Under the pieces are notes generated by a model that was given only the letters and a program-made list of their open reading frames with translations, did not search any database and was not told where the DNA came from. 39,153 nucleotides of DNA from a virus (lineage: Duplodnaviria; Heunggongvirae; Uroviricota; Caudoviricetes). The stretch lies in the IMG/VR virus record IMGVR_UViG_2609459804_000025, one strand, 5' to 3'. The position numbers and the translations under genes were made by a program. Position 1 is the stretch's first letter. Each line of letters begins with the position of its first letter. Shown piece after piece: positions 1,449-39,153 of the stretch.

Positions 1449-1803
1449 TTTGTGATTTGCGTGTGAGGGTGCTACTTTCGACCGAACCTTTGGCAACCGG
1501 ATAGCGGGGGCTTTCACCCCCGCTGCGGTTTCTTACGGTTTACACTGCAAGAACGCCGCAAATTCTGACCACATGATGTTAAGTCTGAACTCACACGGCG
1601 AACGGTGTATCATCCAGACTGTCAACAACATGGTTAAGCATAAAATGCTCACGATGATCGTTTTTTGCGGCATAGCGCTTGCTCCTTTTTCAAAGAGGCG
1701 CTAACCTTCCACTTGCGAAGGTTAGATGGTTAGGGCCTCGGGTTAAACAAATGTTTGACTCGGGGCCTTTTCACATCCGGCCTTCAGGTAATCCTTCCAG
1801 CCG

Positions 1804-5739: not shown

Positions 5740-8563
5740 TAATCTCCAGATACGTGTAGCCCTTACTGCGGTCGACCGTCTCACTCAACCCGTCAGGCGC
5801 GCCCGGGAAATGACCGGCGCGCTTTCCGAATCTCTTTCCTCCACGCAGAACGCTCTTAAGTCACTCCAGCGAAGCAGTGATGCGTTTTCCCGTGCCCGCC
5901 AGCAGGTGACCTCGACTGAAAACAGTCTGAACGAGGCGCGTGCGCGACTTCAGCGCCTCCAGGAGGCCCAGCGTACAGGCACAACACTAACGGAAAAACA
6001 GCAGGAAGCTATACGCTCGCTGACTGTGAAGATTGATCGCCTTAATACGGTTTATTCCCTCCACAAATCCCGACTTAGCGAAGCCAGTCGCGAACTGGAA
6101 TCTCACGGTATACGGGCGGACGGAAGTAACCGTGCGGTCGAGAGGGCAATCAGGCGGACGCAGGAATACAACGATCAGCTCGAACGCCAGCGGGGCCAGC
6201 TTGCACGCGTCACGCAGGCGCAGCAACGCTATGACCGTGTTCAGGATATTGCCGGTAAGCTCAGTCAGCGCGGTGCTGTTGCCATGGCGGCTGGCAGTGC
6301 CGGTCTGTATGCTGCCGGTCGCGCGGTTGCACCTGTTGTTGAAGAGCAACGGCAGGGTGCGCTCATTGCGGCACAGAGTGGCGGCAGCGCAGAAGACGGC
6401 CAGCGCTACAGCCGTATGATTCAGAGCATCCGTGCGTCAGGTGCGGCCACGGATATCGCGATGATTTCGGAAGCAGCAGCTGCGGCGCAAAGCACGCTTG
6501 GCGCACTGGGTACCGTAGGGACTGAAGAACTGGAAAGGGTGACACGGCAGGCAATCGATCTTGCTCAGGTCACCGGCGGTAATGTGGCTGAACAGGTTCA
6601 GGCTGCTGGCATTATGCTGAAAAACGGGCTTGCCGCAAATGCAGGTGAGGCCGTCGACCTGATGGCGGCAGGGATGCAGAAAATGTCTGCCGAAATGCGC
6701 GGCGAACTTCCTGAAATTCTGCATGAGTATTCCACGCATTTCCGCAATATGGGGCTATCCGGCTCTGAAACCATGACGCTGCTTGTCAGCATGGCGCAGC
6801 AGGGGAAATTCGCCCTGGATAAAACCGGCGATGCTGTCAAAGAATTCAGTATTCGCGGCTCGGATATGTCCAAATCCAGCGTTGAAGCCTATGAGCTGAT
6901 TGGCCTTAACGCTGAAAGAATGTCGTCAGCGATCGCCAGTGGCGGCGCGGCCGCGCGTGAAGCGATGCGTCGCACCGCGTCAGGTCTGTTACAGATTCAG
7001 GATCCTGCAGAACGGGCCAATGCGGCGATAGCGCTGTTCGGCACACCCATTGAAGATCTGGCTGTTGACCAGATCCCGGATTTTCTCCGGTCGCTTGCAA
7101 CGGTATCTGACCGTATGGGGCTGGTTCAGGGAACCGCCCGGCGAATGGGGGATGTTCTGCGTGACAACCTCGGCGGCGACACCGATCGTCTGTCCGGCAT
7201 TTTCTCCGGTATTCGCAGTGATGTTGTGTCGCTGGTTACTGATGATATCCGCGAGCTTGTACAGGCTGTTGCTTCTGTGGGTGAACGCTTCAGGTCGTGG
7301 GTTCAGGAAAACCCGCAGCTTGTACGCACGCTGACCCTTACCGTGGGTGGCGTGCTTGCGGCCACAACGGCCATTGGTGCGTTGTCTGTCGGAGGTGGGT
7401 TACTGACGGGGATTTTTGCAAAACTTCAGCTTGGCTCTGCGCTTCTTGGTGGCGGGCTATCCTCGCTTACAAACGGTGTTGGTGGTCTTGCTCTTCGCCT
7501 GTCCGGCCTTCCGGCACTGTGGGGGATGGTCTCCGGTGCGGTTTCTGTGCTGGGCGGGGTGCTTTCCGGTCTTCTCAGTCCTGTTGGTCTCGTGATTGCT
7601 GCTCTTGCCGGTGGGGCGCTGCTCATATGGCGTCACTGGGAACAGGTTAAGGCGTTCATGCTCGGCACATTCCGGTCGCTGTGGGCTGGCCTTGCGCCTG
7701 TTCGTGAAAGTATTGCTCAGTTTGCGCCGTTGTTTGATCTGGTGTCGGGTGCGGTGTCCACGGTGTTTGACTGGTTTACCCGGTTACTCACGCCTGTTCA
7801 GGCCAGCAACGAATCTCTTGAACGGTGTACGTCTGCGGGAGAAAGCTTCGGTCGTGTACTTAGTGGGGCGATATCGCTTGCGCTTACGCCGCTGAAGGCG
7901 CTGATGGATGGACTTGCCTGGGTACTGGAAAAGCTTGGCGTGCTGCCTGATGAAGCTGAAAGGGCGCGCCGGAAACTGGAGGATGCACAGCGGGCTTCGC
8001 TTCTTCAGGGCAAGCTCTCCCTGCTTCAGGGGGATGTTAATGCCATTATCTCGCCCGCTAAGCCAGTTGATGGCAATGATAAAGGTAATAATGGTGGCAA
8101 GCCTTCTGTCATAAACGACGGCACCAGTGGCGTTCTTCGCAGGCTCAAAGGTATCGAGGGTAATACGTCGGGTATGCTTCAGGAAGCCCGCAAGCGTATC
8201 GGTCCTGGCGATATCGTGTTTAAAAATCTCCCCCGTGCGCTGGCTGTTCGCGGGCAGTGGAATGAACCGACTGTTGCACCCGGGCTTCCGCTTATGCCAG
8301 CGTTTTCGCCTGTGTCTCCGGCGGTTTCCCCGGATTCTTCCCGTCCTGTGGAGGTTAAGCGGTGGGATCCGGTGTCCCCGACACCCCGGGGGCCTTCGCG
8401 CTCTCCTGAACCGCCGCCTGTGTACGGTGGTGATATTCATGTTCACCTTCACAACGTGGTTACGCAGAACCCTCGCGACCTTGCCAGAATGGTGGGGGAG
8501 GCGGTACGGGAAGAAATTCGCAGACAATCCGGCGGTATGAACAGTTTCCGCGATCGTGATTAG
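5732..8563 (+). CDS. T: tail tape measure protein T
   Basis: About 943 aa from ATG 5732 (the track start at 5678 is GTG); coiled-coil N-terminus, Gly/Ala-rich hydrophobic middle, position between E/E' and U; typical tape-measure composition. Confidence 0.9.
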   Translation: MSNNLQIRVALTAVDRLTQPVRRAREMTGALSESLSSTQNALKSLQRSSDAFSRARQQVTSTENSLNEARARLQRLQEAQRTGTTLTEKQQEAIRSLTVKIDRLNTVYSLHKSRLSEASRELESHGIRADGSNRAVERAIRRTQEYNDQLERQRGQLARVTQAQQRYDRVQDIAGKLSQRGAVAMAAGSAGLYAAGRAVAPVVEEQRQGALIAAQSGGSAEDGQRYSRMIQSIRASGAATDIAMISEAAAAAQSTLGALGTVGTEELERVTRQAIDLAQVTGGNVAEQVQAAGIMLKNGLAANAGEAVDLMAAGMQKMSAEMRGELPEILHEYSTHFRNMGLSGSETMTLLVSMAQQGKFALDKTGDAVKEFSIRGSDMSKSSVEAYELIGLNAERMSSAIASGGAAAREAMRRTASGLLQIQDPAERANAAIALFGTPIEDLAVDQIPDFLRSLATVSDRMGLVQGTARRMGDVLRDNLGGDTDRLSGIFSGIRSDVVSLVTDDIRELVQAVASVGERFRSWVQENPQLVRTLTLTVGGVLAATTAIGALSVGGGLLTGIFAKLQLGSALLGGGLSSLTNGVGGLALRLSGLPALWGMVSGAVSVLGGVLSGLLSPVGLVIAALAGGALLIWRHWEQVKAFMLGTFRSLWAGLAPVRESIAQFAPLFDLVSGAVSTVFDWFTRLLTPVQASNESLERCTSAGESFGRVLSGAISLALTPLKALMDGLAWVLEKLGVLPDEAERARRKLEDAQRASLLQGKLSLLQGDVNAIISPAKPVDGNDKGNNGGKPSVINDGTSGVLRRLKGIEGNTSGMLQEARKRIGPGDIVFKNLPRALAVRGQWNEPTVAPGLPLMPAFSPVSPAVSPDSSRPVEVKRWDPVSPTPRGPSRSPEPPPVYGGDIHVHLHNVVTQNPRDLARMVGEAVREEIRRQSGGMNSFRDRD

Positions 8564-13261: not shown

Positions 13262-13839
13262 TGTGGGCCTCCGCTCGTATCGCTACCGCTCTTCACTCCG
13301 CTGTGTACGTGGGTGTGTACGGTGATGCCGTTTGATTCGAGGCTGCCGCCACTGTGTTTCACGTTGCCTTTCATTGTTCCGCCGCTGGTCAGCTCGAATG
13401 TCTTTGTCTTCAGCAACTGCGTACATTCCACCTTTGGCGCGTCCAGCGTGATACTGGTTTCAGCCGTAATGGTTGCGGTTTTTATACCTCTGGCCGTCAG
13501 GCTGCTTTCCTGTGCGTTATAGCGAAATTCCGCACCGTCCGGCGCGGTAATGACCATTTCGTTTTCCAGCGATCCCGGTGGCGGGTTGTCGTTGCTGTAC
13601 AGACTTCCTGCGCTGACTGCGGTTTCCGGATTGCCGCCCGGGCATAGGAGAAACACCTGTTCGTCCGGTGATGGGGGGATCCAGATTTTAAATTTTCCGG
13701 CCCGCCCGCTGTTCCATCGGATCCAGTTTGTGGTCAGGCCGCCGGTCTGCACACGCACCTCCCAGGTGTCGGTGTTGATTTCCGTAACCACACCAATCCG
13801 CACAATGTTTTCCAGCAGACGCATAAGCTCGATGTTCAT
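13258..13839 (-). CDS. V: baseplate spike/assembly protein V
   Basis: 193 aa; P2 gpV-like (VQTGG..T.W..W...RAG, TLD.P.VECT, GG.L.SNG...HTH.H). Confidence 0.9.
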   Translation of the reverse strand: MNIELMRLLENIVRIGVVTEINTDTWEVRVQTGGLTTNWIRWNSGRAGKFKIWIPPSPDEQVFLLCPGGNPETAVSAGSLYSNDNPPPGSLENEMVITAPDGAEFRYNAQESSLTARGIKTATITAETSITLDAPKVECTQLLKTKTFELTSGGTMKGNVKHSGGSLESNGITVHTHVHSGVKSGSDTSGGPQ

Positions 13840-14471
13840 TTCGCTGCTTTCCCCAGTCCGGCAATCACGGTTTCTGTGATTTGCTGTTTGTCTTTTTCGT
13901 TCAGGCCCAGCAGCTCGCGCACGGGGTATTTCGTGGCGTTCCCGGGTGATACCAGGCCCACCTCACCGAACTGGTGCACTCTGGCAATACGCGCGGCCCG
14001 GCCCTGAAAGCCGACACTTACGCCGTTTGTGTCGGGGATGATTCTCAGAAAGCGTGCTGTTCTCAGCTTTTCGAACATAGGTGAGCGACGTGATGCTCTT
14101 GCTGCGACGCGCTGTGTGTTAATTTCCAGGTAGTCCCCGATGTCTGCCTTGTAAAACGTCCTGATCCCCCCGGCGTCTGTATCGTAGCCGGTGATTTTCT
14201 GCCCGAAACATCCCTGTGACGTGCTCCAGTTTTTCAGGTTTCTTACCTGGCCGTCCTTCCAGATAAACTTCACGCCTTTTTGTATGCGCATGATGCGGCG
14301 TTTTCGTTTCTCCCATGGCTGGCCTTCCGGGGATACCTGGCTTCTGATGCGTTTTGTCTGTAGCTGTCGGACGACCTTACCCACGCTCATTGCCGTGCGC
14401 TGAATTCCGGCTGCCGACAGGCCGGAAAGAATATCCTGAAAGATGACATCCAGTTCGCGGTCCGCTCTCAT
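13836..14471 (-). CDS. S: tail completion / virion morphogenesis protein S
   Basis: C-terminal RIARVHQFGEVGLVSP...YPVRELLGLN matches the phage virion-morphogenesis family (P2 gpS); start at 14471 gives an ATGA overlap with the R stop; the track start is 14498. Confidence 0.82.
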   Translation of the reverse strand: MRADRELDVIFQDILSGLSAAGIQRTAMSVGKVVRQLQTKRIRSQVSPEGQPWEKRKRRIMRIQKGVKFIWKDGQVRNLKNWSTSQGCFGQKITGYDTDAGGIRTFYKADIGDYLEINTQRVAARASRRSPMFEKLRTARFLRIIPDTNGVSVGFQGRAARIARVHQFGEVGLVSPGNATKYPVRELLGLNEKDKQQITETVIAGLGKAAK

Positions 14472-14938
14472 GTGCTGGTCTCCGTTCCGGTTCGCCACGT
14501 CATGTCTTCAAACACTACGCGCCATGCTTCCAGTGCCCGGCTTATCGGGGGCTCACCGATGTGCTCTGCCGTCACCGTGCCGTCGTCATTACGGCGCACA
14601 ATCACGCGCTCCCATACCGGGATTTCCAGCAGGATATCGGCACTGTCGTCATCGTTGATGGCCGTCGAAAATTTGATGCTTTTGTTCTTCTCCGGATTGA
14701 GAAGAAGATCCGGCTGATTCCTGTACAGCCACGCCATGACCGGCAGCATGATGTTGTCGATACTTTCTGTGAAGTCCATGACGAACAACACCAGGTTGTA
14801 GCGGTACAGGAATGAGGGGGATTCACCGGTGGTTTCAATGCCACCCGATTCAATGAATACCGTGAATTTTTCCGGGCTGGCCTTACACCACCGGCAGTTG
14901 CTGGTCAGAGCTTCGCGTAATGAATTCAGTTTCAGCAT
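14468..14938 (-). CDS. R: tail completion protein R
   Basis: 156 aa, P2 gpR-like size and position directly upstream of S with coupled stop/start. Confidence 0.85.
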   Translation of the reverse strand: MLKLNSLREALTSNCRWCKASPEKFTVFIESGGIETTGESPSFLYRYNLVLFVMDFTESIDNIMLPVMAWLYRNQPDLLLNPEKNKSIKFSTAINDDDSADILLEIPVWERVIVRRNDDGTVTAEHIGEPPISRALEAWRVVFEDMTWRTGTETST

Positions 14939-15035
14939 AAAACACCGTAGAACGTGTTGCGTGTGGCAATTAAAAATCTCAAAATTAAATGGCTTTTAAT
15001 TCGGGTTCTTTCTTGCTCACCTTTCCCCTCTTGCA

Positions 15036-15062
15036 CCCTCCGTATACCGGAGGGTTTTTTGT
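15036..15062 (+). terminator. strong intrinsic terminator oriented for + strand transcription, located between - strand genes
   Basis: ccctccg-tatac-cggaggg perfect 7-bp GC-rich stem followed by tttttt; on the - strand it is preceded, not followed, by the U-tract. Confidence 0.5.
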
Positions 15063-15110
15063 TTCTTTTGCTGTGGACAGTGGTGCCGTTCTGATGCGCT
15101 GTGCCTGTTG

Positions 15111-15275
15111 TTATGGCAATACCCCGTTGACCGCTCCGCCAGCTGATTTCCTGGCGGCTGCTTCATCTATCTTTTTGTTCCAGAAATTGCGGACGGCTTT
15201 ATATCCCCCTGAGATCAGATACAGAAGGGATACGGCGGTACTGAAATACAACATTATCTGATGAATAAATCCCAT
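15111..15275 (-). CDS. small hydrophobic protein (54 aa, one predicted TM helix), below ORF-track size cutoff
   Basis: ATG at 15275 preceded by aaggag SD at 7-nt spacing; translation MGFIHQIMLYFSTAVSLLYLISGGYKAVRNFWNKK...; immediately downstream of the esterase gene. Confidence 0.4.
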   Translation of the reverse strand: MGFIHQIMLYFSTAVSLLYLISGGYKAVRNFWNKKIDEAAARKSAGGAVNGVLP

Positions 15276-15339
15276 GGCTTGCTCCTTTTATTTTCCCGGT
15301 TGTCAGCGAGCTTCCCCGCCGGATGGCTGGGAAGCATTG

Positions 15340-17310
15340 TTATGCCGGTGGCTGATTTACGACAACGCTCAGGCTGTCAATCAGTACGGTATAGGTCGGC
15401 CGATACGTGATATCGGTCACGCGTAACGTGTCGTTGGTAACATCGGCTTTTGATGTGGAAAGCATGAACGGTTTTCCGTCCACGCCATCCAGAACCGGTG
15501 TTACCTGGGTGCTGTTGTTTCCCGCAAAACGAAACGCTATGGTGTGCCAGTTGTTATTGAACTGACCAAAGGTTCCCAGTTGTTCGTTTGGCGTTTTGTG
15601 ATACATCAGATTCAGGTTTGCGCTGTCTGTCTGAAGAAAGAATGAGAGCAATAAATTATTTGGATCTGCCCCCAGTAATTTCACATCCTGCGGTAATGCT
15701 GATGTTTTCCAGTACATCGCCATTGCGTACTGGTCTTTTTTCAGCTCACCCTCGATTTTGAATCGGCAACTTACAGTCCCGCCATTTTTCAGAAGGTCAG
15801 CACCATTACCGGCCTTATGCTCCAGATACCAGGTATTGCCTTCCTGTTTGGTCAGTTTCAGGGCTTTTTTCCCTGTTGCTTCCTCATCACCGATCAGCAT
15901 GTCTTTCAGTTGTTTTGGTGTGTTGGCCCCGTTTTTGCCTTCGCTCAGCGTCCAGCCCTGGCTTTCCCGTTCAGGAGATGATGCCAGCAGACTCATGAGC
16001 GTGACCGGCCCCGGTCTGACTGCCGGTTGTTCTGCTTCCGGTGAAGATGGCTTACTGATGCCGCCCGGTGCATCCTGTGATGGTTTTGCCACGCGTTCCG
16101 GCTCTGTACCCGCAATAAATGGCAGCGTGCGGCCGACGTTAAGCAGGATTGCTGACGCCATGCGATCGGCAATAATGCCCCGGCGGGCCCATGAGCTGAA
16201 GTGCGTTCCACGCAGATGGCTTACCCAGTTTCCGCTACTGCGGGATGCGGCACCGTAATAACCCGCTTCCGCAATATCCGGATCTTCTGTCGGCTCGTTT
16301 GTTGGGGTGTTTTTCCCGTACTCATCCGTAACAAAAGGCACAAAAACAATATTCTTCTCAGTGCTGTTTTTGTATCCGCCATACACGGTTGCGTACTGTG
16401 CTTCGTAGGTTTTTTTCCAGTGGTAGGTGGTATCTCCACAAATCCACGGCACGCTTTCAGGGTTGCCCTGGTTGCACTGCTTCGCAACATCGGCCAGGTC
16501 AGCCCGGAACTGCTTCACCATGGCTGTGAAAAGATCTTTATGCTGTGCGGCGTTTTGTTCTTTCTCAAGATCTGCCTCGCCCTGTGTCCAGCAGACGGCC
16601 AGCAGGACGTTTTTCGGATTTTTCGCCAGCGCTGCTTTTGTGCGGCTGATTAAATCCTTGTACAGCGGCGTGTTCGTTCCCCAGCGGCAGGATTTTTCAG
16701 TTGCGCCGCCGATCTCGCTGAATTGCCCCGCATCACCGGTTGTAAAGCCGGAACCGCCACGGCTGCATGGGACCAGAAGGATCCCCGCATTTGCCGGGAT
16801 AAATGGCAGCAGGCGCTTCGCAATGTGCAATCCCTGACTCACACAGCCATGCTGACCTTTGTTCAGGTCGGCTTTCGGGTGGTTGTACTGGCTCATATCC
16901 TGCACGTCATGCAGGCAGTGATCCGCCAGAATGATGTCGTTATAGGCACAAGCTTTTCCGCCCGGGGTTACGGTGCTGCGGCGTGCCAGCTGGCGAATGC
17001 GCGAATCGGGTTTATCGTAACTTTCCGGGAGAGGTAACCCCTCACCGTATGCCATAGAGTTGGACTGACCAGCGCTCACCACAACGTAATACCACTCCGG
17101 TTCGCTGTCGGATGTCGGGGTGATAATGGTGCCTCCCTGGTCATCACTGCCTGAAACCATAGCCTGCATGAGATACCAGGGGACTCCCGGCTCTGATGCA
17201 ATACCGGCATTACCGAGAAGTTCCCAGCCTTCCTGTAACCGCTTGTTAACTTTTTCAGCGAATTCTGCGCGGTTGGTGGCAGTAATCAGTTCAAAGTGTT
17301 TTTTGCTCAT
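15340..17310 (-). CDS. sialate O-acetylesterase-like protein (N-terminal DUF1737-like domain + SASA/SGNH esterase domain with GQSN motif; NanS-p-like prophage cargo)
   Basis: 656 aa; VVVSAGQSNSMAYGEG contains the GQSN catalytic-serine motif of sialate O-acetylesterase (SASA) domains; domain order resembles prophage NanS-p esterases of enterohaemorrhagic E. coli; SD aggag 6 nt upstream of ATG, 3 nt after the lysC stop. Confidence 0.75.
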   Translation of the reverse strand: MSKKHFELITATNRAEFAEKVNKRLQEGWELLGNAGIASEPGVPWYLMQAMVSGSDDQGGTIITPTSDSEPEWYYVVVSAGQSNSMAYGEGLPLPESYDKPDSRIRQLARRSTVTPGGKACAYNDIILADHCLHDVQDMSQYNHPKADLNKGQHGCVSQGLHIAKRLLPFIPANAGILLVPCSRGGSGFTTGDAGQFSEIGGATEKSCRWGTNTPLYKDLISRTKAALAKNPKNVLLAVCWTQGEADLEKEQNAAQHKDLFTAMVKQFRADLADVAKQCNQGNPESVPWICGDTTYHWKKTYEAQYATVYGGYKNSTEKNIVFVPFVTDEYGKNTPTNEPTEDPDIAEAGYYGAASRSSGNWVSHLRGTHFSSWARRGIIADRMASAILLNVGRTLPFIAGTEPERVAKPSQDAPGGISKPSSPEAEQPAVRPGPVTLMSLLASSPERESQGWTLSEGKNGANTPKQLKDMLIGDEEATGKKALKLTKQEGNTWYLEHKAGNGADLLKNGGTVSCRFKIEGELKKDQYAMAMYWKTSALPQDVKLLGADPNNLLLSFFLQTDSANLNLMYHKTPNEQLGTFGQFNNNWHTIAFRFAGNNSTQVTPVLDGVDGKPFMLSTSKADVTNDTLRVTDITYRPTYTVLIDSLSVVVNQPPA

Positions 17311-17313
17311 CGT

Positions 17314-17625
17314 TTACTCCTGATGGGGCGCATCTTGCGCCCGTTCTGCTCTTTGTTTATCCAGCCAGGCGATCGCAGCCTTGTCTGCGTTGCATGTGTC
17401 GAGTGCTTCCAGTAGCCGATCGCTCCATTCAGTCACCCTGTACCATGTCACGGGTATTTCCAGTGCCGGAACCGGGGTCTGCCTTGTCAGAACTGTCGGC
17501 ACCGGCTCGTAAACGAGTCTGGTTTTCAACGTGTGCGGCGTGTTGCTGCAACCGCTCAGTAACAGCAGCGGGAGGATAAGCGCTGGCACACGTGTCGCCC
17601 TGCACGGCTTTTTGCATTTCTTCAC
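17314..17625 (-). CDS. lysC: o-spanin lipoprotein (LysC / Rz1-like), embedded out of frame in the lysB 3' region
   Basis: Lipobox LLLSGC after a basic N-terminus; Pro-rich; overlaps lysB in another frame, the classic Rz/Rz1 arrangement. Confidence 0.75.
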   Translation of the reverse strand: MKKCKKPCRATRVPALILPLLLLSGCSNTPHTLKTRLVYEPVPTVLTRQTPVPALEIPVTWYRVTEWSDRLLEALDTCNADKAAIAWLDKQRAERAQDAPHQE

Positions 17626-17863
17626 GTCGTTGCTCTCCTTCTGTGATCCGTTGCTGGTCCAGAATGCGGATCACGTTTATCACCCTGGAAAAGTCTGTGT
17701 ATGCATGGCGAACTTCCTGCATGGCGGCGCGGTTGTCCTCTATGATGTCCATCATCTGTTCCCGTCCGAGACTTTCCTTCCCTTTGCGGTATGCTTCCCA
17801 GCCTGTCAGGCCACAAAGCAACAGGGTGGCAAGAAACCAGAGCAACACGGCAGGTGTTTTCAT
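17429..17863 (-). CDS. lysB: i-spanin (LysB / Rz-like)
   Basis: About 144 aa from MKTPAVLLWFLATLLLCGL (N-terminal TM anchor, then coiled-coil); ATGA overlap with endolysin stop. Confidence 0.75.
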   Translation of the reverse strand: MKTPAVLLWFLATLLLCGLTGWEAYRKGKESLGREQMMDIIEDNRAAMQEVRHAYTDFSRVINVIRILDQQRITEGEQRREEMQKAVQGDTCASAYPPAAVTERLQQHAAHVENQTRLRAGADSSDKADPGSGTGNTRDMVQGD

Positions 17864-18417
17864 TGCTTCACTCCGTTCATACACCAGTTCCTGAAGTCAT
17901 TGCGCCGGTTAAACAGCCCCTGTGAATAGCGTCCGCCGCTGTTCACAAAATCCGTCAGCCTGCCGCACATTGCGCTCCAGTTCTTTCCCTGAGCGAACTT
18001 CCAGATGGTTGTTCTGTGCATCCTCCCGTCACGCCCCTTAAACCACATCAGGCCTTTGCACCCCAGATTAAAGGCAGCATCCGTCATTGCCTCAAAGTGG
18101 CGTTGTGGCATGTCGCGGCCATTGAAATTCTGATTGATGCAGTTCTCCGCCCGTCGTAAATCGTTCACCCATCGACCGGCAACTTCCTGTTTGGTATGGT
18201 GGCGGTCGGGGACGTTTCCCGTTGAGCCACAACCCACGGTTTTCACGCCAGCGATATCCCTGTACGGGAATGCCCGACACTCTTCCCAGGTGGCAATTTT
18301 TTCCTGTGCCTCCTGTGAGGTTCTCAGCTCCCCGGGGGCCAGCGAAAAACCCAGCGCCACGATGGCGGCAACGGCATAGCGTTTAATCTGTCCTGGCATG
18401 TGATTCCCCGTCTGCAT
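17860..18417 (-). CDS. K: SAR-type endolysin (GH24 phage lysozyme)
   Basis: N-terminal weakly hydrophobic Gly/Ala-rich segment (YAVAAIVALGFSLAPG) then E...FPYRDIAGVKTVGCGSTG lysozyme catalytic region resembling P21 R-type SAR endolysins; alternative start at 18399. Confidence 0.85.
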   Translation of the reverse strand: MQTGNHMPGQIKRYAVAAIVALGFSLAPGELRTSQEAQEKIATWEECRAFPYRDIAGVKTVGCGSTGNVPDRHHTKQEVAGRWVNDLRRAENCINQNFNGRDMPQRHFEAMTDAAFNLGCKGLMWFKGRDGRMHRTTIWKFAQGKNWSAMCGRLTDFVNSGGRYSQGLFNRRNDFRNWCMNGVKQ

Positions 18418-18685
18418 TCAGGGCTTCCAGAGCGCGCTTCTCGCTGCCTTTTAGTGGTCGGTGCTGCATCTGGTCGGCAATGCGTGCAATAAGCTCATTG
18501 CGCCGCTCCTGTGCCTGCTCCATACGTGTTCTGTGCATCCATCCGCGCAGCAGTGAAAGCGCCCCCAGAATCAGTCCTGCCAGCGCCATCTTCTCGCTCA
18601 GCGTCATAACCCCTATACCGGTGACCATGACGGATGTGAAAAACGTAATGTGGTCGTAAATTCTCTGAAACATAATCAATCCCAC
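18383..18685 (-). CDS. Y: holin (two predicted TM segments; probably pinholin partner of the SAR endolysin)
   Basis: 100 aa, two hydrophobic helices then charged C-terminus; position between X and the endolysin as for P2 Y. Confidence 0.65.
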   Translation of the reverse strand: MGLIMFQRIYDHITFFTSVMVTGIGVMTLSEKMALAGLILGALSLLRGWMHRTRMEQAQERRNELIARIADQMQHRPLKGSEKRALEALNADGESHARTD

Positions 18686-20337: not shown

Positions 20338-21432
20338 TTACGCCTGTGCTTCTGCCTCTTTCTTGTCTTCCGGATCTTCACCGGCGAAAGAAATGCCCTC
20401 AATCAGTGCGCACTTGCCGTAGTCTTCCACCACGTAGCAGTCGTTCATGGACTGGTAGGTGGCGATACGGTTGTACTCCGGCTCTTCACGGATGAAGCGA
20501 CGCAGTGACCCTTTCTGGAAGTAGACCGAAAGGTTGCTGAACGACGTGATCAGCATGGCATCGTCCGGGAAGTACGGCGCAAAGAAGGTTGGCAGCGCGC
20601 CAATGGTGCGGGAGGCTGTAATCAGCTGTCCGGCGACCAGCTCCGTGTTCGGGTTGGTGGTGCTGATGGCGTTAATCATAGGCAGACGCAGCGTGTTGAA
20701 CAGGTTGCGGCCCATGACAACAACCAGATCCGGGGCGTCCTTGTGCCACTCATCCAGTATGGAAGAGCGAATGTCGTTAACCATCGCGTCAGCGTTGCCG
20801 TAGTCGCCTTTTGCAACCAGTTTGTTTTCATGATCGCGACGGGTCAGCGTCATTGCCTTCACGATACGCGTCGTGGCGTGTTCACGGATGTGTTTCAGCC
20901 ACCCGGTGTTAACGTCCTGAAGTTTCGGGTTGGCAGAACGATCGGAGATGATGGCGTGCGACTCACCGTTAAAGCCAATCATGATACGGTCCAGTGCAAT
21001 CTGTCGGGTGATTTGTGCACTCAGCAGTTGCTGGAAGTTTTTCTGGCTGCTCCACGCGTCAATCTGTGCGTAGCTGATGAAGGTGTCGTAGTTCACCTGT
21101 TCGCAGCGATAACGACGTGATGCCAGATCAGAGACGTCAGCGGGATTGCGTCGCTTCACGCCGTCACTGGTTGAGTTGGTGCTGGCGATGGGGCCGCTGG
21201 TATTCACCAGGACTTTTTCACCCTCCTGATCGTCAACGCCGATGCTGTTGATTCTTTTCAGCAGCTCGTCGCTCTCTTTGATGGCGTTTTCCATCTTCTG
21301 ATGAACAGCCGGATCAACGCTGAAGGTTTTCCCCAGTCGTTCTACGGTGGTTTCGGCCAGTTCAGCCTGGCGTGCAAGATAGGCCTCAAGATTGCTGCGG
21401 CCTTCGCGAGAAAGCGTTAAGCGGTTTCCCAT
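20338..21432 (-). CDS. N: major capsid protein N
   Basis: 364 aa; extensive similarity to P2 gpN as recalled (GFNG, SDRS.NP.LQDV..GWL, DPDLVV..GR.L, PYFP.DAMLIT, NLS.Y, YVVEDY). Confidence 0.93.
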   Translation of the reverse strand: MGNRLTLSREGRSNLEAYLARQAELAETTVERLGKTFSVDPAVHQKMENAIKESDELLKRINSIGVDDQEGEKVLVNTSGPIASTNSTSDGVKRRNPADVSDLASRRYRCEQVNYDTFISYAQIDAWSSQKNFQQLLSAQITRQIALDRIMIGFNGESHAIISDRSANPKLQDVNTGWLKHIREHATTRIVKAMTLTRRDHENKLVAKGDYGNADAMVNDIRSSILDEWHKDAPDLVVVMGRNLFNTLRLPMINAISTTNPNTELVAGQLITASRTIGALPTFFAPYFPDDAMLITSFSNLSVYFQKGSLRRFIREEPEYNRIATYQSMNDCYVVEDYGKCALIEGISFAGEDPEDKKEAEAQA

Positions 21433-25935: not shown

Positions 25936-27633
25936 TTATTTATCCTCTTTAATGATTTTGTTATAGTCAAAATCCCAAATTTTTCTGTCAATGCCGTTTG
26001 TTGGTGTAACCCGGTAGAATAAGGATCGTAATCCATTGTAAAAATACTGGAGAGATTTCTGATTTTCTGGTTTGTTTAACCAGTTTCTTGTAATCATTCT
26101 AAAGAATTCAATATGCTGATTGAATATTTTCTTATTTAATTTTCTGCTTAAACCGGATGTAGACTCATGGTTGTCTTTTCTTTTCTGAATTTCAGTTTCA
26201 ATTGATTGTAATTGAGGACGTATCTTGAGTAAGTATAACTCTTTCGAAAAACCATTGTTAATTATATCCTGATTTTCCCAGAAGGAAGAGTCGTCGGTAT
26301 TATAAAGGTGCTCACAATGCTCAAATATCAATTGTTCTGGAGCTTTTTCACCCGGCAGTGATATAATTCCTCTCTGATCCTCAGGGCTGTGATCTCCATC
26401 AAGAATACAAATTGATTTTAACGAGGTTTCCTTAAGATGAGAATCATTAAAAATAGTTTTTAAATTGTCTGCACCAATGAAACAATCAATTAAGTGAAAT
26501 GAATTACTAACTATAGCAAAATTTGGATATTTGCTTATCCAATAACCAAGTATTTCATTAAATAAAAAGCGAGCTTCTTCATCTTCCGTGAAAACTGGTA
26601 TCTTGTTCCTTGTGTATATCTCATCCTTTGTTTGTGTTTTCAGATACATTGTTATTTTTAATATATCAGGATTATCCAAAAGCAGAGCCTTTGTAATATT
26701 GTTAATTAGATAGACAACATGGTATTTTTTATGAAAAGCATATTCTAGCAATGTCAGACTGTGCGTTGTGAAAAATACTTGAATCTTATAATCTTTTGCG
26801 TATTGATAAATTTTATCTAATAATCTTATCTGTAAAGAAGGATGTAAAGTGGCATCAAATTCATCTATTAACAGAATGCTTTCTTTTTGATCAGTGGATT
26901 GAATAAGTGATTCAAAATAATACCTAAGGCTAACTAATGCCTTGATTATAATGAATATATTGTCTTCCCCGGATGATATGGTATTAGAATCAATTGCTGG
27001 GTTATCGGTATCAAATAATGGGCCAGCTTTAAAATCTCCGATATTGTTTGATTCTATATTTATAATATTAATGCCCAAAAGTTCATTATATATTTTCGAT
27101 ATATAACCAACATACTCTTCTGGTAGGTTTAACGGAATTTTTGTAAGGGCGTCGTCTTTAGTTTCACCAATCGGGAATAGTCGCGATAATCCAAGATATA
27201 AAACTGGTTTAGCTGGAAGTGATTGTTTTTCTTTTCCGCGTGGGTATACTGGTTTGATAGCATACCGTTGCGCTTCGTCTGGATTTTTTGAGTTGTGCTT
27301 TCTGAAGTCTAGTGTGCTATGATCCAAATAGTTAATAGAAAATAACACACCTTTTGTTCCCTCTGCCGGATCGGTGTAATTTTTTGATTCCCTAACAATT
27401 GCTTCCATTTTTGGGTTGGCTATTTTGTTTATAGATTTTATAACTCTAACACAATTACTATTTGAATAATTTTGTGATCTAGATGGTGGTATTTGGAAAC
27501 CATTGCTAATTAAATGAAGCAATGTTGTCTTACATGTCCCATTGGTTCCTGATATTATATTGATGTCTTCATTGAATGAGAAGTCAATATCTATCAGTTT
27601 CTTAAATTTTTTAAAACTAATTTCTTTAATCAT
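25936..27633 (-). CDS. ABC-type ATPase with C-terminal TOPRIM-like nuclease domain (OLD-family-like ATP-dependent nuclease)
   Basis: 565 aa; Walker A ISGTNGTCKTTLL, signature-like ISSGEDN, Walker B/D-loop ILLIDEFDATLHP, H-loop FFTTHS; C-terminal FTEDEE and ILDGDH fit TOPRIM E and DxD motifs. Very AT-rich coding sequence; SD aaggatg. Confidence 0.8.
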   Translation of the reverse strand: MIKEISFKKFKKLIDIDFSFNEDINIISGTNGTCKTTLLHLISNGFQIPPSRSQNYSNSNCVRVIKSINKIANPKMEAIVRESKNYTDPAEGTKGVLFSINYLDHSTLDFRKHNSKNPDEAQRYAIKPVYPRGKEKQSLPAKPVLYLGLSRLFPIGETKDDALTKIPLNLPEEYVGYISKIYNELLGINIINIESNNIGDFKAGPLFDTDNPAIDSNTISSGEDNIFIIIKALVSLRYYFESLIQSTDQKESILLIDEFDATLHPSLQIRLLDKIYQYAKDYKIQVFFTTHSLTLLEYAFHKKYHVVYLINNITKALLLDNPDILKITMYLKTQTKDEIYTRNKIPVFTEDEEARFLFNEILGYWISKYPNFAIVSNSFHLIDCFIGADNLKTIFNDSHLKETSLKSICILDGDHSPEDQRGIISLPGEKAPEQLIFEHCEHLYNTDDSSFWENQDIINNGFSKELYLLKIRPQLQSIETEIQKRKDNHESTSGLSRKLNKKIFNQHIEFFRMITRNWLNKPENQKSLQYFYNGLRSLFYRVTPTNGIDRKIWDFDYNKIIKEDK

Positions 27634-27650
27634 CTATATCATCCTTAAAT

Positions 27651-28496
27651 TTAAATGTCAGGGATTTTTATACCATGATTATAAATGATAATTTCTAGAC
27701 CTTTTTTCTTATCTTGTGCAGTATAATTAAGCGTATAATCAGTCATGTTGAATTCATGATATATGCTTTTTATTTCAGGCACATTGTCATAAGACACAAC
27801 CCAAGGTAGTTGAATTTCACGTAGTGTATTAGCGATTTTTACATGATCATCATGTTTATAAAAATTTCTATATAACTCTGCTCCTTTAACATAATAAGGT
27901 GGATCAAGATATATTAGACTATTTTGGGGTAGTAATGCTTTTTGGTGTAGCAGAAAATCTGCAGCATCAAAATTCGATACGTAAATTTTCTCCTTATATG
28001 CACCAATTAGTTCAATCCTTTTAATTAACTCTTTTTTGTTGAATCTTGCATCTAACTTCCATGGTCCTTTTTGTTCTTTCCCTCCAATAACGCCAGCCTT
28101 AAGTATTCCTGAACGGTTTGTTCTATTTAAAAAGAAAGTAGATAATGCGACTTCAAGCATACTATATTTATCATTGTTTAGGAGTATCTCCTTTTGAGTA
28201 TGCCAATTTTCAATAGTCACAGGAACTTCATCAATCATTTCACATAACAGATCGTTATGATTAACCACTGCAAACCAAAAAGAATAAAGGGCAGGATCAA
28301 TATCATTTATGAAGATATTTTCAACAAGACCGTTAAGGAGCAAACCTAATGCTACACCGGCTCCACCTGCATAAGGTTCAGCATAACATCCACCAATGAG
28401 ATCATTGTTGCGGAGTATTTGTTCAATATGTGGCAAGAATTTTGCCTTACCTCCCGGATAACGAAGAGGGGTTCTAAAATGAGAAGGCTTTGTCAT
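27651..28496 (-). CDS. N6-adenine DNA methyltransferase, D12 (Dam-like) class
   Basis: 281 aa; N-terminal RYPGGK...EPYAGGAGV (AdoMet-binding, Dam motif order) and catalytic DPPY (IYLDPPYY); AT-rich like the downstream nuclease gene, 17 bp apart on the same strand. Confidence 0.85.
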   Translation of the reverse strand: MTKPSHFRTPLRYPGGKAKFLPHIEQILRNNDLIGGCYAEPYAGGAGVALGLLLNGLVENIFINDIDPALYSFWFAVVNHNDLLCEMIDEVPVTIENWHTQKEILLNNDKYSMLEVALSTFFLNRTNRSGILKAGVIGGKEQKGPWKLDARFNKKELIKRIELIGAYKEKIYVSNFDAADFLLHQKALLPQNSLIYLDPPYYVKGAELYRNFYKHDDHVKIANTLREIQLPWVVSYDNVPEIKSIYHEFNMTDYTLNYTAQDKKKGLEIIIYNHGIKIPDI

Positions 28497-37070: not shown

Positions 37071-37121
37071 GTCAACACCTTCAAATCCTGATGTTCTTAA
37101 TGATCCAGGTTTGTTTTGATA

Positions 37122-37646
37122 TCACTGGTTGCCTCCGCTGTATTGGTGTTGCTCCAGTTTTGACTTTCTTCCTGTGTAAACCCGCTTTCCATTGATGGTC
37201 TGGCAGTCTTCTTTGTTTGCCGGGGAAAACTTTCTTTTCTGTCGGTCGTACGTCCAGTAGCTTTTCCAGTTGTGCCATTCTGGCGGCTCGCATTCTGGTA
37301 GTTCGTCAGCCAGCTTGTCCCACTCTCTGGCGTTAAACCACCATACGCCATCCGAATTTTCATCTTCAGGGTTTGAACGGGTCTTGTGTCCAGGCATCTG
37401 ATTTCGCTGAAGCGCCACGCGCAATGCAGCTTTTGTCAACCCGATATAGGCTGCCCCTTTTTCAAGTGAGCAAAGTCCGGCTACCGGGCCATCCAGTCGC
37501 AAGGTTGCCCCTTTTTTGTAGGTGCGTTTTTTCTTTTCCTCTTGGTGTTCATCGTCGTTTGCCGCACCAACGGATTCGGTGATGCTGTCGTTTTCCTGAA
37601 GGGCTTGTGTGTCAGATAACTCTTTATCGGCAATGAAGTCCCGCAT
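37122..37646 (-). CDS. first early-operon gene; putative Cox/Apl-type excisionase-regulator (atypically long, start uncertain)
   Basis: Occupies the cox/apl position divergent from C; contains an HTH-like segment (AAYIGLTKAALRVALQRNQMPG); the acidic N-terminal 40 aa may not be translated if a downstream non-ATG start is used. Confidence 0.45.
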   Translation of the reverse strand: MRDFIADKELSDTQALQENDSITESVGAANDDEHQEEKKKRTYKKGATLRLDGPVAGLCSLEKGAAYIGLTKAALRVALQRNQMPGHKTRSNPEDENSDGVWWFNAREWDKLADELPECEPPEWHNWKSYWTYDRQKRKFSPANKEDCQTINGKRVYTGRKSKLEQHQYSGGNQ

Positions 37647-37708
37647 TTGTTATCCTCTTGCGTTGGTGCGCTTGCCGCGCCTTATGAAGGTTTGTTCTGG
37701 TTTGTTTA

Positions 37709-37726
37709 CTTCACCTTGTGGTGAAG
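37709..37726. promoter_or_regulatory. perfect palindrome cttcacc-ttgt-ggtgaag in the C/early divergent switch region (candidate operator)
   Basis: Read directly; 7-bp half-sites with 4-bp spacer, 24 bp upstream of the C start codon. Confidence 0.4.
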
Positions 37727-37749
37727 AGTGAAAAGAGGATACTCATCGT

Positions 37750-38091
37750 ATGGTGAACATGTCAAGAGATTACGCCAAAAAACTGAAGGCGATCAGAAAT
37801 GCGGAAAAACTTACGCAAGCTCAGTTCTCGCAAGTAACGGGGGTTTCTGTAGGAACTATAGGAAATTATGAGTCTGGATATAAACCTGCGCGAATTGAGG
37901 TTGTAGAAAAAGTAATCCAAGTCGAGCGATTCGAAAAATACACTATGTGGATACTTCACGACAAAACATTTCCCGCTGCCGGGCAGGTTGCCCCGGCTCT
38001 CTCTCTTGATGGCTCCATTCAGTCGGAGGGCGATCAGGTTTCAATCGGCATTACCCAAAAATCACCCCGATCTCGTCGCAATGCTGGCTAA
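37750..38091 (+). CDS. C: immunity repressor C (HTH_XRE)
   Basis: 113 aa; HTH LTQAQFSQVTGVSVGTIGNYESG; FEKYTMWIL and PALSLDGS segments resemble P2 C (FTKYTLWFM, PALAHFGQ). Confidence 0.8.
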   Translation: MVNMSRDYAKKLKAIRNAEKLTQAQFSQVTGVSVGTIGNYESGYKPARIEVVEKVIQVERFEKYTMWILHDKTFPAAGQVAPALSLDGSIQSEGDQVSIGITQKSPRSRRNAG

Positions 38092-38160
38092 CGCTGTACA
38101 TCGAGCGGGTTTCATCCCGTAGAGAGTGTACGGCTGATTCATCCGTTGGAGGGGCTAATC

Positions 38161-39153
38161 ATGTCTATTAAGCAACTCAAAGACGGGCGTTATAAGGTTG
38201 ATGTAAGGCCGCAAGGGGCGGAAGGAAAGCGGATCCGTAAGATTTTTACCCTGAAGTCAAAGGCACAGGAGTTTGAAAGGTATGTTTTGCAGAATTTCCA
38301 CGATAAACCGTGGCAGGCCAAGCCAGCTGATCAGCGTCGGTTATCCGAACTGATAGATGCCTGGTGGGTGCTTGATGGCCGGAATCAGCCTTACGGTGAT
38401 ACTTACAGGGTCAGGCTGGAAAAAATAAACCGTGAGATGAGGGACCCCCGCGCCAGTGAGATGACGCGAAAGTTTATGCTCGGGTATCGTTCAGACAAAT
38501 TACAGGCCGGATTAATGCCCTCCAGTGTTAATCGTGATTTGTGCGCCTTGTCTGCAATGTTTACTGCGTTGATTGATGCGGAGGTTTTCCATAACGAAAA
38601 CCCGGTGCGTGGAATACGTAAGCTCAAGGTCAGGAATACAGAAATGGCCTTTCTTTCAGATGATGAGATTGATCGGCTGCTTGAACGACTCGAGGGGGAT
38701 GCGCGTCGTGTTGCTGTTCTGTGTCTTTCCACTGGCGCAAGGTGGGGGGAAGCAGCTGGCTTACGTGGTGAGCATATCGTTGGTAACCGCGTAATGTTCT
38801 TTAACACAAAGAATGGAAAATCCCGCGCGGTTCCTGTTTCTGATACGGTGCTTTCGTTGATAAAAACCCGAAAAACCGGGCTATTGTACCAGGCTGATTA
38901 CATCCGTTTTCGGGATATCCTTCAGGAGGTGAAACCGGATTTACCCAAAGGTCAGGCGACTCACGTTATGCGTCACACGTTCGCCACGCATTTCATGATG
39001 AACGGCGGAAATATCGTTACGTTACAGCGAATCCTTGGGCACGCCACGATTCAACAAACGATGACGTATGCGCATTTTTCACCGGACTTTTTACAGGATG
39101 CGATTAGCTTTAATCCGCTGGCTGATAGTGTCCATAAACTGTCCATTGACTAG
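38161..39153 (+). CDS. int: tyrosine integrase, P2 Int family
   Basis: 330 aa from MSIKQLKDGRY (SD ggagggg at 6 nt); extensive similarity to P2 Int as recalled, including the catalytic region LSTGARWGEAAGL, HVMRHTFATHFMMNGG, LQRILGH, TMTYAHF. Stop TAG is the last codon of the window. Confidence 0.92.
   Translation: MSIKQLKDGRYKVDVRPQGAEGKRIRKIFTLKSKAQEFERYVLQNFHDKPWQAKPADQRRLSELIDAWWVLDGRNQPYGDTYRVRLEKINREMRDPRASEMTRKFMLGYRSDKLQAGLMPSSVNRDLCALSAMFTALIDAEVFHNENPVRGIRKLKVRNTEMAFLSDDEIDRLLERLEGDARRVAVLCLSTGARWGEAAGLRGEHIVGNRVMFFNTKNGKSRAVPVSDTVLSLIKTRKTGLLYQADYIRFRDILQEVKPDLPKGQATHVMRHTFATHFMMNGGNIVTLQRILGHATIQQTMTYAHFSPDFLQDAISFNPLADSVHKLSID

Follow-up and report, generated by a model that had tools for sequence, protein, structure and literature searches.

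How does a gene resembling the sialate O-acetylesterases of Shiga toxin (Stx) phages come to stand between the lysis gene lysC and the tail completion gene R of a P2-type prophage, and what could it do there? The question is raised by IMG/VR virus record IMGVR_UViG_2609459804_000025, a stretch of 39,153 nt (the window) to which coordinates refer unless an L-numbered locus is named, and in which this junction is occupied by an open reading frame (ORF) of 656 amino acids (aa) followed by one of 54 aa. The enzyme family concerned, NanS-p, has so far been treated as a trait of enterohaemorrhagic Escherichia coli (EHEC) and of Stx or other lambdoid prophages, and a preliminary description of the window, made from the letters alone, had presented the larger gene as cargo grafted onto a P2-type lysis cassette. 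Our analysis indicates that the locus is a nanS-p plus DUF1378 module of the kind known from lambdoid lysis cassettes, set into the one long late operon of an E. coli prophage of the Peduoviridae, and that, by analogy with lambdoid phages, its product would be a late-expressed sialate O-acetylesterase with a lectin domain that is released at lysis. We put the probability of this reading at about three in four.

Both ORFs are present and, like every gene of the locus, lie on the minus strand, a detail which the preliminary description had left out (Table 1). Three Pfam domains were identified in the 656-aa protein, all of them exceeding the curated cut-offs and far past chance: DUF1737 (PF08410, aa 3-52; 34.7 bits, cut-off 24), SASA (PF03629, aa 148-274; 50.1 bits, cut-off 24.8) and DUF6645 (PF20350, aa 507-620; 151 bits, 1.6e-44). 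The whole protein matches phrog_143 in PHROGs (E 2e-295), aa 70-389 match E. coli NanS/YjhS (PDB 3PT5; phmmer, E 6e-114) and the C-terminal domain matches PDB 6YP6 (E 3e-63). The same two entries rank first in a Foldseek search with the AlphaFold2 (AF2) model, with template modelling (TM) scores of 0.89 to 6YP6 and 0.71 to the NanS-like 3PT5, and the next matches are sialoglycan- or ganglioside-binding lectin domains; the model was used for the N- and C-terminal domains only, the predicted local distance difference test score (pLDDT) of the catalytic domain being below 50 over much of aa 82-208 and 328-377. Protein cluster P0001 (“sialate O-acetylesterase [E. coli]”, 277 members) shares 99% identity with the window protein, which is about 55% identical to more than 340 NanS-p genes of Stx phages. 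The PADLOC models gave no match for either NanS-p or DUF1378.

The active-site blocks of 3PT5, whose positions were taken from a secondary analysis, are GQSNA (Ser19), RGGSAF, MQGEFD and R-x-SHFS (His301) (PMC10792757). In the alignment to this structure, their counterparts in the window protein are GQSNS (Ser83), RGGSGF, TQGEAD and RGTHFS (His370), the RGGSGF and QGE blocks belonging to the oxyanion region. According to the hydropathy profile, the N-terminus is hydrophilic, and a hydrophobic stretch of the signal-peptide kind was not found. The ratio of non-synonymous to synonymous substitution rates (dN/dS) between alleles is 0.10-0.25 in all three domains, where synonymous sites are unsaturated, which fits purifying selection on the gene. 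Judged from its sequence, the 656-aa protein is an intact member of the NanS-p family, with all of the features that define the family at this level. The SASA-type, NanS-p-like identity that had been proposed from the GQSN motif, with a DUF1737 and SASA search and an alignment with EHEC prophage genes as its suggested checks, is therefore borne out.

The position of the gene suggests when it would be expressed. In phage P2 the genes lysC and R overlap by 38 nt and in phage P88 by 14 nt, so the 2375 nt that separate them in the window are extra, and the junction was rightly described as contiguous in P2. The gaps that remain are 3 nt between lysC and nanS-p, 64 nt between nanS-p and the DUF1378 gene and 172 nt between the latter and R. 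The ribosome-binding site AGGAG had been placed 3 nt after the lysC stop; it lies instead within the last two sense codons of lysC and is followed by TAAACG, of which TAA is the lysC stop, so that it is the nanS-p ATG which begins 3 nt past this stop. Between lysC and R neither a sigma-70-like promoter, in what was a crude consensus search, nor a sense-strand terminator, in a consensus scan, was found. Boxes of the TGT-N12-ACA type, expected for an Ogr-type activator, were confined to the two intergenic regions O/P and D/FI, in which late promoters would be expected, and absent before nanS-p, R and V. Given the tight packing and the lack of promoter or terminator signals in these scans, the pair is expected to be read as part of the late operon and its products to be set free at lysis. 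Expression with the late/lysis operon had been proposed in the preliminary description, and the downstream tail and baseplate genes apparently rely on transcripts running through nanS-p and DUF1378. In the absence of a signal peptide, the enzyme would exit the cell only at lysis.

Two candidates were rejected at this junction. An independent promoter for nanS-p or R was discarded, as the insert has neither a TGT-N12-ACA box nor a sigma-70-like site. A clean insertion with target duplications was discarded as well: filled and empty P88-type sites also differ in the lysC tail and in the N-terminus of R, which points to modular recombination. The spacer ahead of R gave no Rfam match. Its hairpin has an A-run ahead of it on the coding strand and no U-run after it, and is terminator-like only on the plus strand. 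An A-run with a G+C-rich hairpin lacking a coding-strand U-run was observed after the nanS-p module in three phage types (window 15035-15055, L002 ~6810-6835 and L003 ~5945-5985). A hairpin with the shape of an antisense terminator could block antisense transcription or stabilise the 3' end of an RNA.

The same signals bear on the view that nanS-p is a classical lysogenic-conversion moron, transcribed from its own promoter in the lysogen and allowing each cell to use O-acetylated sialic acid. The literature, including a review (PMC8065619), does describe NanS-p as a fitness factor for lysogens, and the 3' part of the module is lower in G+C than the backbone. However, no promoter-like site was found upstream of nanS-p, whose ATG is packed against the lysC stop, and no sense-strand terminator was found after the module by the consensus scan, so that the promoter and terminator of its own by which a moron is recognised were not found. 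In the P88-like lineage the gene even overlaps lysC (ATGA) and stops 23 nt ahead of R. The signal peptide is missing from the window protein, in contrast to the chromosomal NanS, which is periplasmic. We consider the moron explanation improbable.

The 54-aa ORF had been described as a membrane protein with a strong Shine-Dalgarno sequence. This is correct as far as it goes, with one N-terminal hydrophobic segment in the hydropathy profile and an AAGGAG ahead of the start, but the ORF is not incidental: it belongs to DUF1378 (Pfam, E 6e-21), the standard partner of nanS-p. In Stx phages the gene order is stxAB, nanS-p, DUF1378, DUF826, holin and lysozyme; DUF1378 directly follows nanS-p in most of 77 non-P2 IMG/VR loci with NanS-p, and DUF1378 and DUF826 likewise come after the NanS-like gene of Mu-like prophages. 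As DUF1378 is the usual downstream neighbour of nanS-p in lambdoid phages, the window contains the two-gene module.

The module is not kept intact everywhere. In the SCU-172-type prophage DUF1378 has decayed (L002 6600-6722, minus strand) to an ATG and 20 codons, two stops and then recognisable C-terminal remnants, and it is absent from the P88-like lineage. Among P88-like prophages in IMG/VR, two loci (L102 and L103) lack the middle of nanS-p and one (L100) its 5' part, while in another (L125) the nanS-p match is split, which may be an insertion or a rearrangement. Such deletion variants and the decay of DUF1378, together with close relatives such as P88 that have no nanS-p, are what would be expected of an inactive passenger, kept merely as part of an operon that must be read through. 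Yet the 656-codon ORF is intact with every catalytic block conserved, the dN/dS values are low, and the region is present at no less than 99.7% identity in 14 of 5426 complete E. coli genomes, and we regard a passenger as very improbable indeed.

For the late-expressed esterase released at lysis, the following sequence of events is proposed. The late activator would switch on the promoter of the O operon, and only then would the nanS-p pair be transcribed, along with the genes for head, lysis and tail. The enzyme would build up in the cytoplasm and meet its substrate only upon cell lysis. To go by the measurements on lambdoid NanS-p, it would then strip 9(7,8)-O-acetyl groups off the sialic acids of mucus glycans, with the lectin-like C-terminal domain targeting it, and the beneficiaries could be surviving sibling lysogens that gain access to N-acetylneuraminic acid, the released phage particles, or both. 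Esterase activity has been reported for several EHEC NanS-p enzymes and for five O104:H4 alleles, and after norfloxacin nanS-p ranked with the most strongly induced late genes of lambdoid phages (review PMC8065619). Free and mucin-bound sialic acids are the substrates on which the family has been measured (PMC8065619, PMC8319020). One O104:H4 genome carries a P2-family nanS-p allele at the same lysC/R junction.

Alternatively, the enzyme might be aimed at the bacterial surface, de-O-acetylating a sialylated capsule or O-antigen (e.g. K1 polysialic acid) and so aiding adsorption or freeing progeny from debris. The E. coli K1 capsule bears O-acetylated sialic acid (PMC8319020), and de-O-acetylation of lipopolysaccharide has been raised as a possible role of NanS-p (review PMC8065619). 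The prophage is, moreover, carried by human isolates of both extraintestinal and commensal origin. However, the majority of nanS-p phage hosts, e.g. O157, are not known to have surface sialic acid, and the substrates measured for the family are the free and mucin-bound sialic acids named above. We consider a bacterial target improbable.

Several points weigh against the release of an active esterase at lysis. P2-type prophages are classically hard to induce, and a public good released by lysis would therefore be made rarely; a P2-like prophage is also given as non-inducible in a published review table. The promoter scan may miss weak or non-sigma-70 promoters, and with a catalytic domain modelled at low confidence the active-site geometry is deduced from the sequence alignment. 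Finally, the deletion alleles and the decayed DUF1378 indicate that nanS-p can be lost without loss of the prophage, and that the module is dispensable.

Where the gene came from can be approached domain by domain. The N-terminal domain (N-domain) of the window protein is 49-73% identical to those of other P2-family alleles and 30% to that of the Stx2a-phage allele; the catalytic domain is 66-78% and 68% identical to them, respectively, and the C-terminal domain (C-domain) 36-40% and 54%. Towards the other lambdoid, Mu-type and P0004 alleles compared, identity in the C-domain is 53-59%. Catalytic domains are 64-78% identical among nearly all alleles, the exception being P0004, a P2-family allele whose catalytic domain is 89% identical to that of the Stx2a-phage allele; across families, catalytic domains are 64-89% identical, whereas N-domains are just 21-31% identical or unrelated. 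In the P0004-type allele, 89% DNA homology with lambdoid alleles extends from about codon 63, which is the domain boundary, to about 50 nt beyond the stop. The C-domain, DUF1378 and the spacer have a G+C content of 48-49%, as against 54-59% in the rest of the gene and the backbone. By these identities nanS-p is a mosaic, with a P2-family-specific N-domain and with a lectin domain and DUF1378 that are closer to lambdoid and Mu-type alleles. The notion of grafted cargo holds in part: the foreign-looking parts are the lectin domain, DUF1378 and the spacer only, while DUF1737 is of a P2-specific subtype and the 5' two-thirds of nanS-p have a backbone-like G+C content.

The P2 subtype of DUF1737 can be recognised by an invariant motif of loop and strand (A38, E40-P41-G42, P44, Y46-L47-M48-Q49) in the alignment of five P2-type N-domains. 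N-domain type was cross-tabulated with phage context at ~118 loci, of which ~108 were informative. P2-type N-domains were found in a P2 context in 38 of 38 cases, and lambdoid-type ones 55 times in a lambdoid and never in a P2 context. A third, non-DUF1737 N-terminus (MSDS[QK]WKM...) was accompanied by Mu-like genes at all 15 loci with any marker, two of which also had lambdoid genes downstream. Scanning IMG/VR with the N-domain alignment returned 34 loci, all with the P2-family capsid, X and lysB genes upstream. For P0002 and P0004, which carry a P2-type N-domain, the context was predicted before it had been seen, and both proved to lie between lysB/lysC and R in P2-like prophages. In the informative loci the N-domain type tracks the phage family without exception, and to judge from the domain identities the catalytic and lectin domains are shuffled between families.

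Three contigs (L101, L104 and L120) were observed in which the head and lysis genes are P88-like and the P2-type nanS-p is complete, and in which a lambdoid holin and lysozyme follow ~100 nt on, where R would be expected. Their junction lies ~15 nt ahead of the nanS-p stop (e.g. L104 9866-9965) and is identical in the three contigs, which are of different sources; this suggests a real recombinant between the P2 family and lambdoid phages at the nanS-p module, and not an assembly error. An analogous joint, with Mu genes upstream and lambdoid genes downstream, was found in L043 and L047.

Why would the N-domain alone be specific to the phage family? A recent preprint offers a possible reason, since it reports the NanS-p homologue of phage phi24B, gp84, as a major virion protein, with the DUF1737 domain placed as a hexamer on the central hexon of each face of the T=9 capsid and held there by a loop with Tyr42 that inserts between helices of the major capsid protein, while the catalytic and C-terminal parts appear to be cleaved from the capsid-bound N-domain (preprint 10.64898/2026.04.10.717836). 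This finding questions the cargo label itself. Applied to the window, DUF1737 would anchor NanS-p to the P2-type capsid, and the lectin and esterase together would form a device for binding to mucus and releasing from it; more generally, the N-domain of the NanS-p family would be an exchangeable virion anchor with its own version in each family, namely lambdoid DUF1737, P2-type DUF1737 and the non-DUF1737 sequence of Mu-like phages. Such an anchor overlaps with late-operon expression and release at lysis and does not exclude them. We consider it a real but doubtful possibility, both for the window protein and for the family.

In the AF2 model of the window protein the N-domain (strand 4-11, helix 14-26, strands 30-40 and 43-54; pLDDT 75-88) shares the layout of one helix and three strands described for the DUF1737 of gp84. 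A family-specific N-domain combined with exchange of the rest would be expected if the N-domain contacts a family-specific partner such as the capsid, and this is the pattern found: the pairing without exception, the two blind predictions of context that were confirmed, catalytic domains far more alike across families than N-domains, and a homology between P0004-type and lambdoid alleles that begins at the N-domain boundary. The N-domain is also under purifying selection, and the operon that contains nanS-p encodes head genes as well.

Other features argue against the anchor. The Tyr42 “tooth” of phi24B is not conserved, the aligned position being Val43 in a hairpin tip, E40-P41-G42-V43 (EPGVP), that is invariant within the P2 subtype. 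The window protein lacks the SISSP motif proposed for cleavage behind the N-domain; an SSP motif is found in its second linker (PSSP 421-424) and not in the first. In phi24B, gp84 is restricted to the three-fold hexons of the T=9 shell, and P2 capsids, being T=7, are without a three-fold hexon. Physical linkage explains part of the association, as the N-domain is the 5' end of the gene and crossovers within the conserved catalytic domain leave it with the upstream backbone. Capsids that are 98% identical are paired with N-domains that are just 73% identical, and closely related P88-like phages, e.g. P88, are without nanS-p entirely. The N-domain of the window protein has the fold of the gp84 DUF1737 in the model, but not its anchor residue in the alignment, and the protein is not filed here as a decoration protein.

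If the anchor were real, temperate E. coli phages of unrelated body plans would each have attached the same esterase-plus-lectin unit to their particles, as a receptor-binding and receptor-destroying device for host mucus that is analogous to the haemagglutinin-esterases of animal viruses, and the T=7 P2-type capsid, for which we know of no decoration protein, would have one. The wiring into the late operon and the pairing of N-domain and phage family constitute an independent genomic argument for the recent proposal of NanS-p as part of the virion. Because this pairing is so strict, a simple P2-type system can be used to test whether NanS-p is cargo or a component of the virion, and P2-type phages with and without nanS-p (vB_EcoM-705R2 or the window prophage versus P88) are likewise a simple system for the question of movement in mucus.

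The arrangement had been called unusual for a P2-like phage, which the genome counts do not bear out. Besides the 14 genomes mentioned above, two of the 5426 have a backbone that is 82% identical with a different allele at the lysC/R junction, 375 have the P88-like lysB-lysC-nanS-p junction (the O104:H4 strain included) and two have a fourth, P0004-like allele type. Summed over these four lineages, nanS-p is present at the lysC/R junction of P2-family prophages in ~393 of 5426 complete E. coli genomes (7%), a count based on DNA similarity per lineage, by which further lineages may be missed. The best matches to the N-terminal 69 residues of the window protein are three Peduoviridae records, vB_EcoM-705R2, vB_EcoM-569R5 and a prophage of an ST131 strain, in all of which nanS-p directly follows lysC. 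When 50,697 phage records were searched by megablast with the 4.3-kb lysis-to-R region, no match was obtained; this collection does not contain the lineage, and relatives were found in it by protein-level searches only. E. coli EC2 and NCTC9112 carry copies of the 4.3-kb region that are 99.9% identical or more. No relative of the P2-type N-domain was confirmed when its alignment was run against species-representative genomes. Stand-alone P2-type DUF1737 proteins were found neither by a word-index protein search with the N-domain only (two fragments) nor by an exhaustive representative search (10 weak or fragmentary matches); a small stand-alone family, phrog_2036 in PHROGs, matches the P2-type N-domain at 3.5e-7.

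In the literature searched, no paper on NanS-p in a P2-like phage was found, and this P2-type host family of NanS-p has apparently not been noted in print, though near-identical sequences are deposited and annotated. NanS-p can be regarded as a regular component of P2-family prophages, with carriers that include urinary, commensal, ST131 and O104:H4 strains. As the carriers extend past EHEC, the ecological role of NanS-p is broader than EHEC virulence.

Table 1. Positions of the nanS-p module, its sequence elements and its neighbouring genes in the window.
Feature	Position	Strand	Details
nanS-p-like gene	15340..17310	-	656 aa; DUF1737 - SGNH/SASA esterase - DUF6645 architecture; Pfam, phrog_143 and PDB matches
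N-terminal DUF1737, P2-family subtype	17146..17310	-	aa 1-55; Pfam PF08410, 1.6e-8
Catalytic SGNH esterase domain	16135..17103	-	aa 70-392; phmmer against NanS 3PT5
GQSN motif (codons)	17059-17070	-	aa 81-84
Catalytic Ser83 codon	17062-17064	-	within GQSN
RGGSGF block	16744-16761	-	aa 184-189
QGE block	16576-16584	-	aa 243-245
Catalytic His370 codon	16201-16203	-	within THFS
C-terminal lectin-like jelly-roll domain (DUF6645)	15343..16008	-	aa 435-656; PF20350, 6YP6
AGGAG ribosome-binding site of nanS-p	17317..17321	-	within the last two sense codons of lysC; sequence reading
DUF1378 gene	15111..15275	-	54 aa; small single-pass membrane protein; PF07125, 6e-21; phrog_494
AAGGAG of the DUF1378 gene	15282-15287	-	6 nt ahead of the ATG
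Spacer before R	14939..15110	-	172 nt; G+C-rich hairpin at 15035-15055
lysC (Rz1-like o-spanin)	17314..17625	-	longest ORF; PF23793, 1.1e-12; upstream neighbour
lysC stop codon	17314-17316	-	TAA
Tail completion gene R	14468..14938	-	PF06891, 9e-41; downstream neighbour, start at 14938

Upstream of nanS-p the gene order is tail gene X, a holin-like ORF, lysozyme, lysB and lysC, and R is followed by S, V, W and J, whose start codons overlap the stop codons before them. The gene of the major capsid protein lies at 20338-21432 on the minus strand. The start of lysC is placed at 17529 in the RefSeq annotation of a 99.9% identical prophage. Unlike P2, the prophage lacks orf30, and its S and V share 4 nt (window 13836-13839), so that no separate intergenic promoter region precedes V. 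It also has no lysA, and its endolysin is of the Phage_lysozyme type (in the region 17860-18685), as against an M15 peptidase in P88-like relatives.

Elsewhere in the prophage, the portal gene and replication gene A are separated by a two-gene pair (window 25936-28496, minus strand) that the EC2 prophage, though 99% identical otherwise, does not have. One gene encodes a 565-aa AAA_15/AAA_21 ATPase with weak matches to the AriA, PtuA, GajA and ATPase-Toprim models, the other a D12-class adenine methyltransferase matching PADLOC PD-Lambda-5_B (E 1e-121), and the pair is probably defence-system cargo at a variable prophage site. At the prophage end, beside the ogr-like late activator, a toxin ORF of the Hok/Gef family (PF01848) was identified (window 1533-1673, minus strand), and the early region of the EC2 prophage is annotated with a ParE-like toxin and a Dam-type methylase. 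The window begins in serS, no tRNA gene was found in it, and an integrase gene runs off its right end (regions 1-1293 and 37104-39153). The near-identical EC2 prophage adjoins tRNA-Leu (pgsA-glyW-cysT-leuZ) and its sequence at that end differs from the window, so the same phage backbone seems to occur with different integration modules and sites.

Among known systems, the NanS-p of lambdoid and Stx phages (933W L0105/z1466; phi24B vb_24B_21, i.e. gp84) has the same three domains and catalytic blocks as the window protein, DUF1378 directly downstream, a place in the late operon beside the lysis cassette and no signal peptide; identity is ~55% overall, 68% in the catalytic domain and 54% in the C-domain. 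The window phage, however, belongs to the Peduoviridae and is not lambdoid, has no stx gene nearby, and carries the module after the spanin genes and before R, whereas lambdoid phages have it between Q/stx and the holin. Its DUF1737 is only ~30% identical to that of Stx phages, lacks Tyr42 and has a different loop. Closer in position are the P88-like nanS-p genes (vB_EcoM-705R2, vB_EcoM-569R5, the ST131 record, O104:H4 2009EL-2071 and strain 4/1-1), which are tightly packed at the same lysC/R junction and share the P2-type DUF1737 subtype (56% identity). They differ from the window in having no DUF1378, in the overlap with lysC and the short distance to R described above, in a C-domain that is 36-38% identical, and in the backbone, with a capsid that is 62% identical and the M15 endolysin in place of lysozyme.

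The chromosomal NanS (YjhS, PDB 3PT5) has a homologous SGNH/SASA domain (56% identity) with the Ser-His pair and the QGE block in common, but it is an exported enzyme of the sialic-acid regulon without DUF1737 and DUF6645. The Mu-like NanS-like esterase P0068 (689 aa) has a catalytic domain 73% and a C-domain 57% identical to those of the window protein, with DUF1378 and DUF826 downstream; its first ~115 residues, unlike those of the window protein, are not DUF1737 and have no Pfam match. In the Mu-like prophages of L093-L095 (gene at L093 6001-8070) this esterase gene comes after a tail-fibre assembly gene and a Gin-type invertase, and a DNA methylase gene lies beyond DUF1378 and DUF826; in L095 a Com-like zinc-ribbon ORF stands ahead of the methylase gene.

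Influenza C virus and betacoronaviruses have haemagglutinin-esterases, in which an SGNH-type sialate O-acetylesterase and a lectin domain are combined on the virus particle. The likeness would be a functional analogy, and it holds only if the capsid anchor is real; these proteins are envelope glycoproteins for entry into animal cells, whereas the host of the window virus is a bacterium and the glycan would belong to the surrounding animal mucus. Lastly, the accessory genes of P2-like phages (old, tin, Z/fun, orf30; cdt-V) are, like nanS-p, non-essential, and present in some members and absent in close relatives. They occupy other variable sites, usually with their own expression signals, whereas nanS-p is surrounded by the structural and lysis genes of the late operon.

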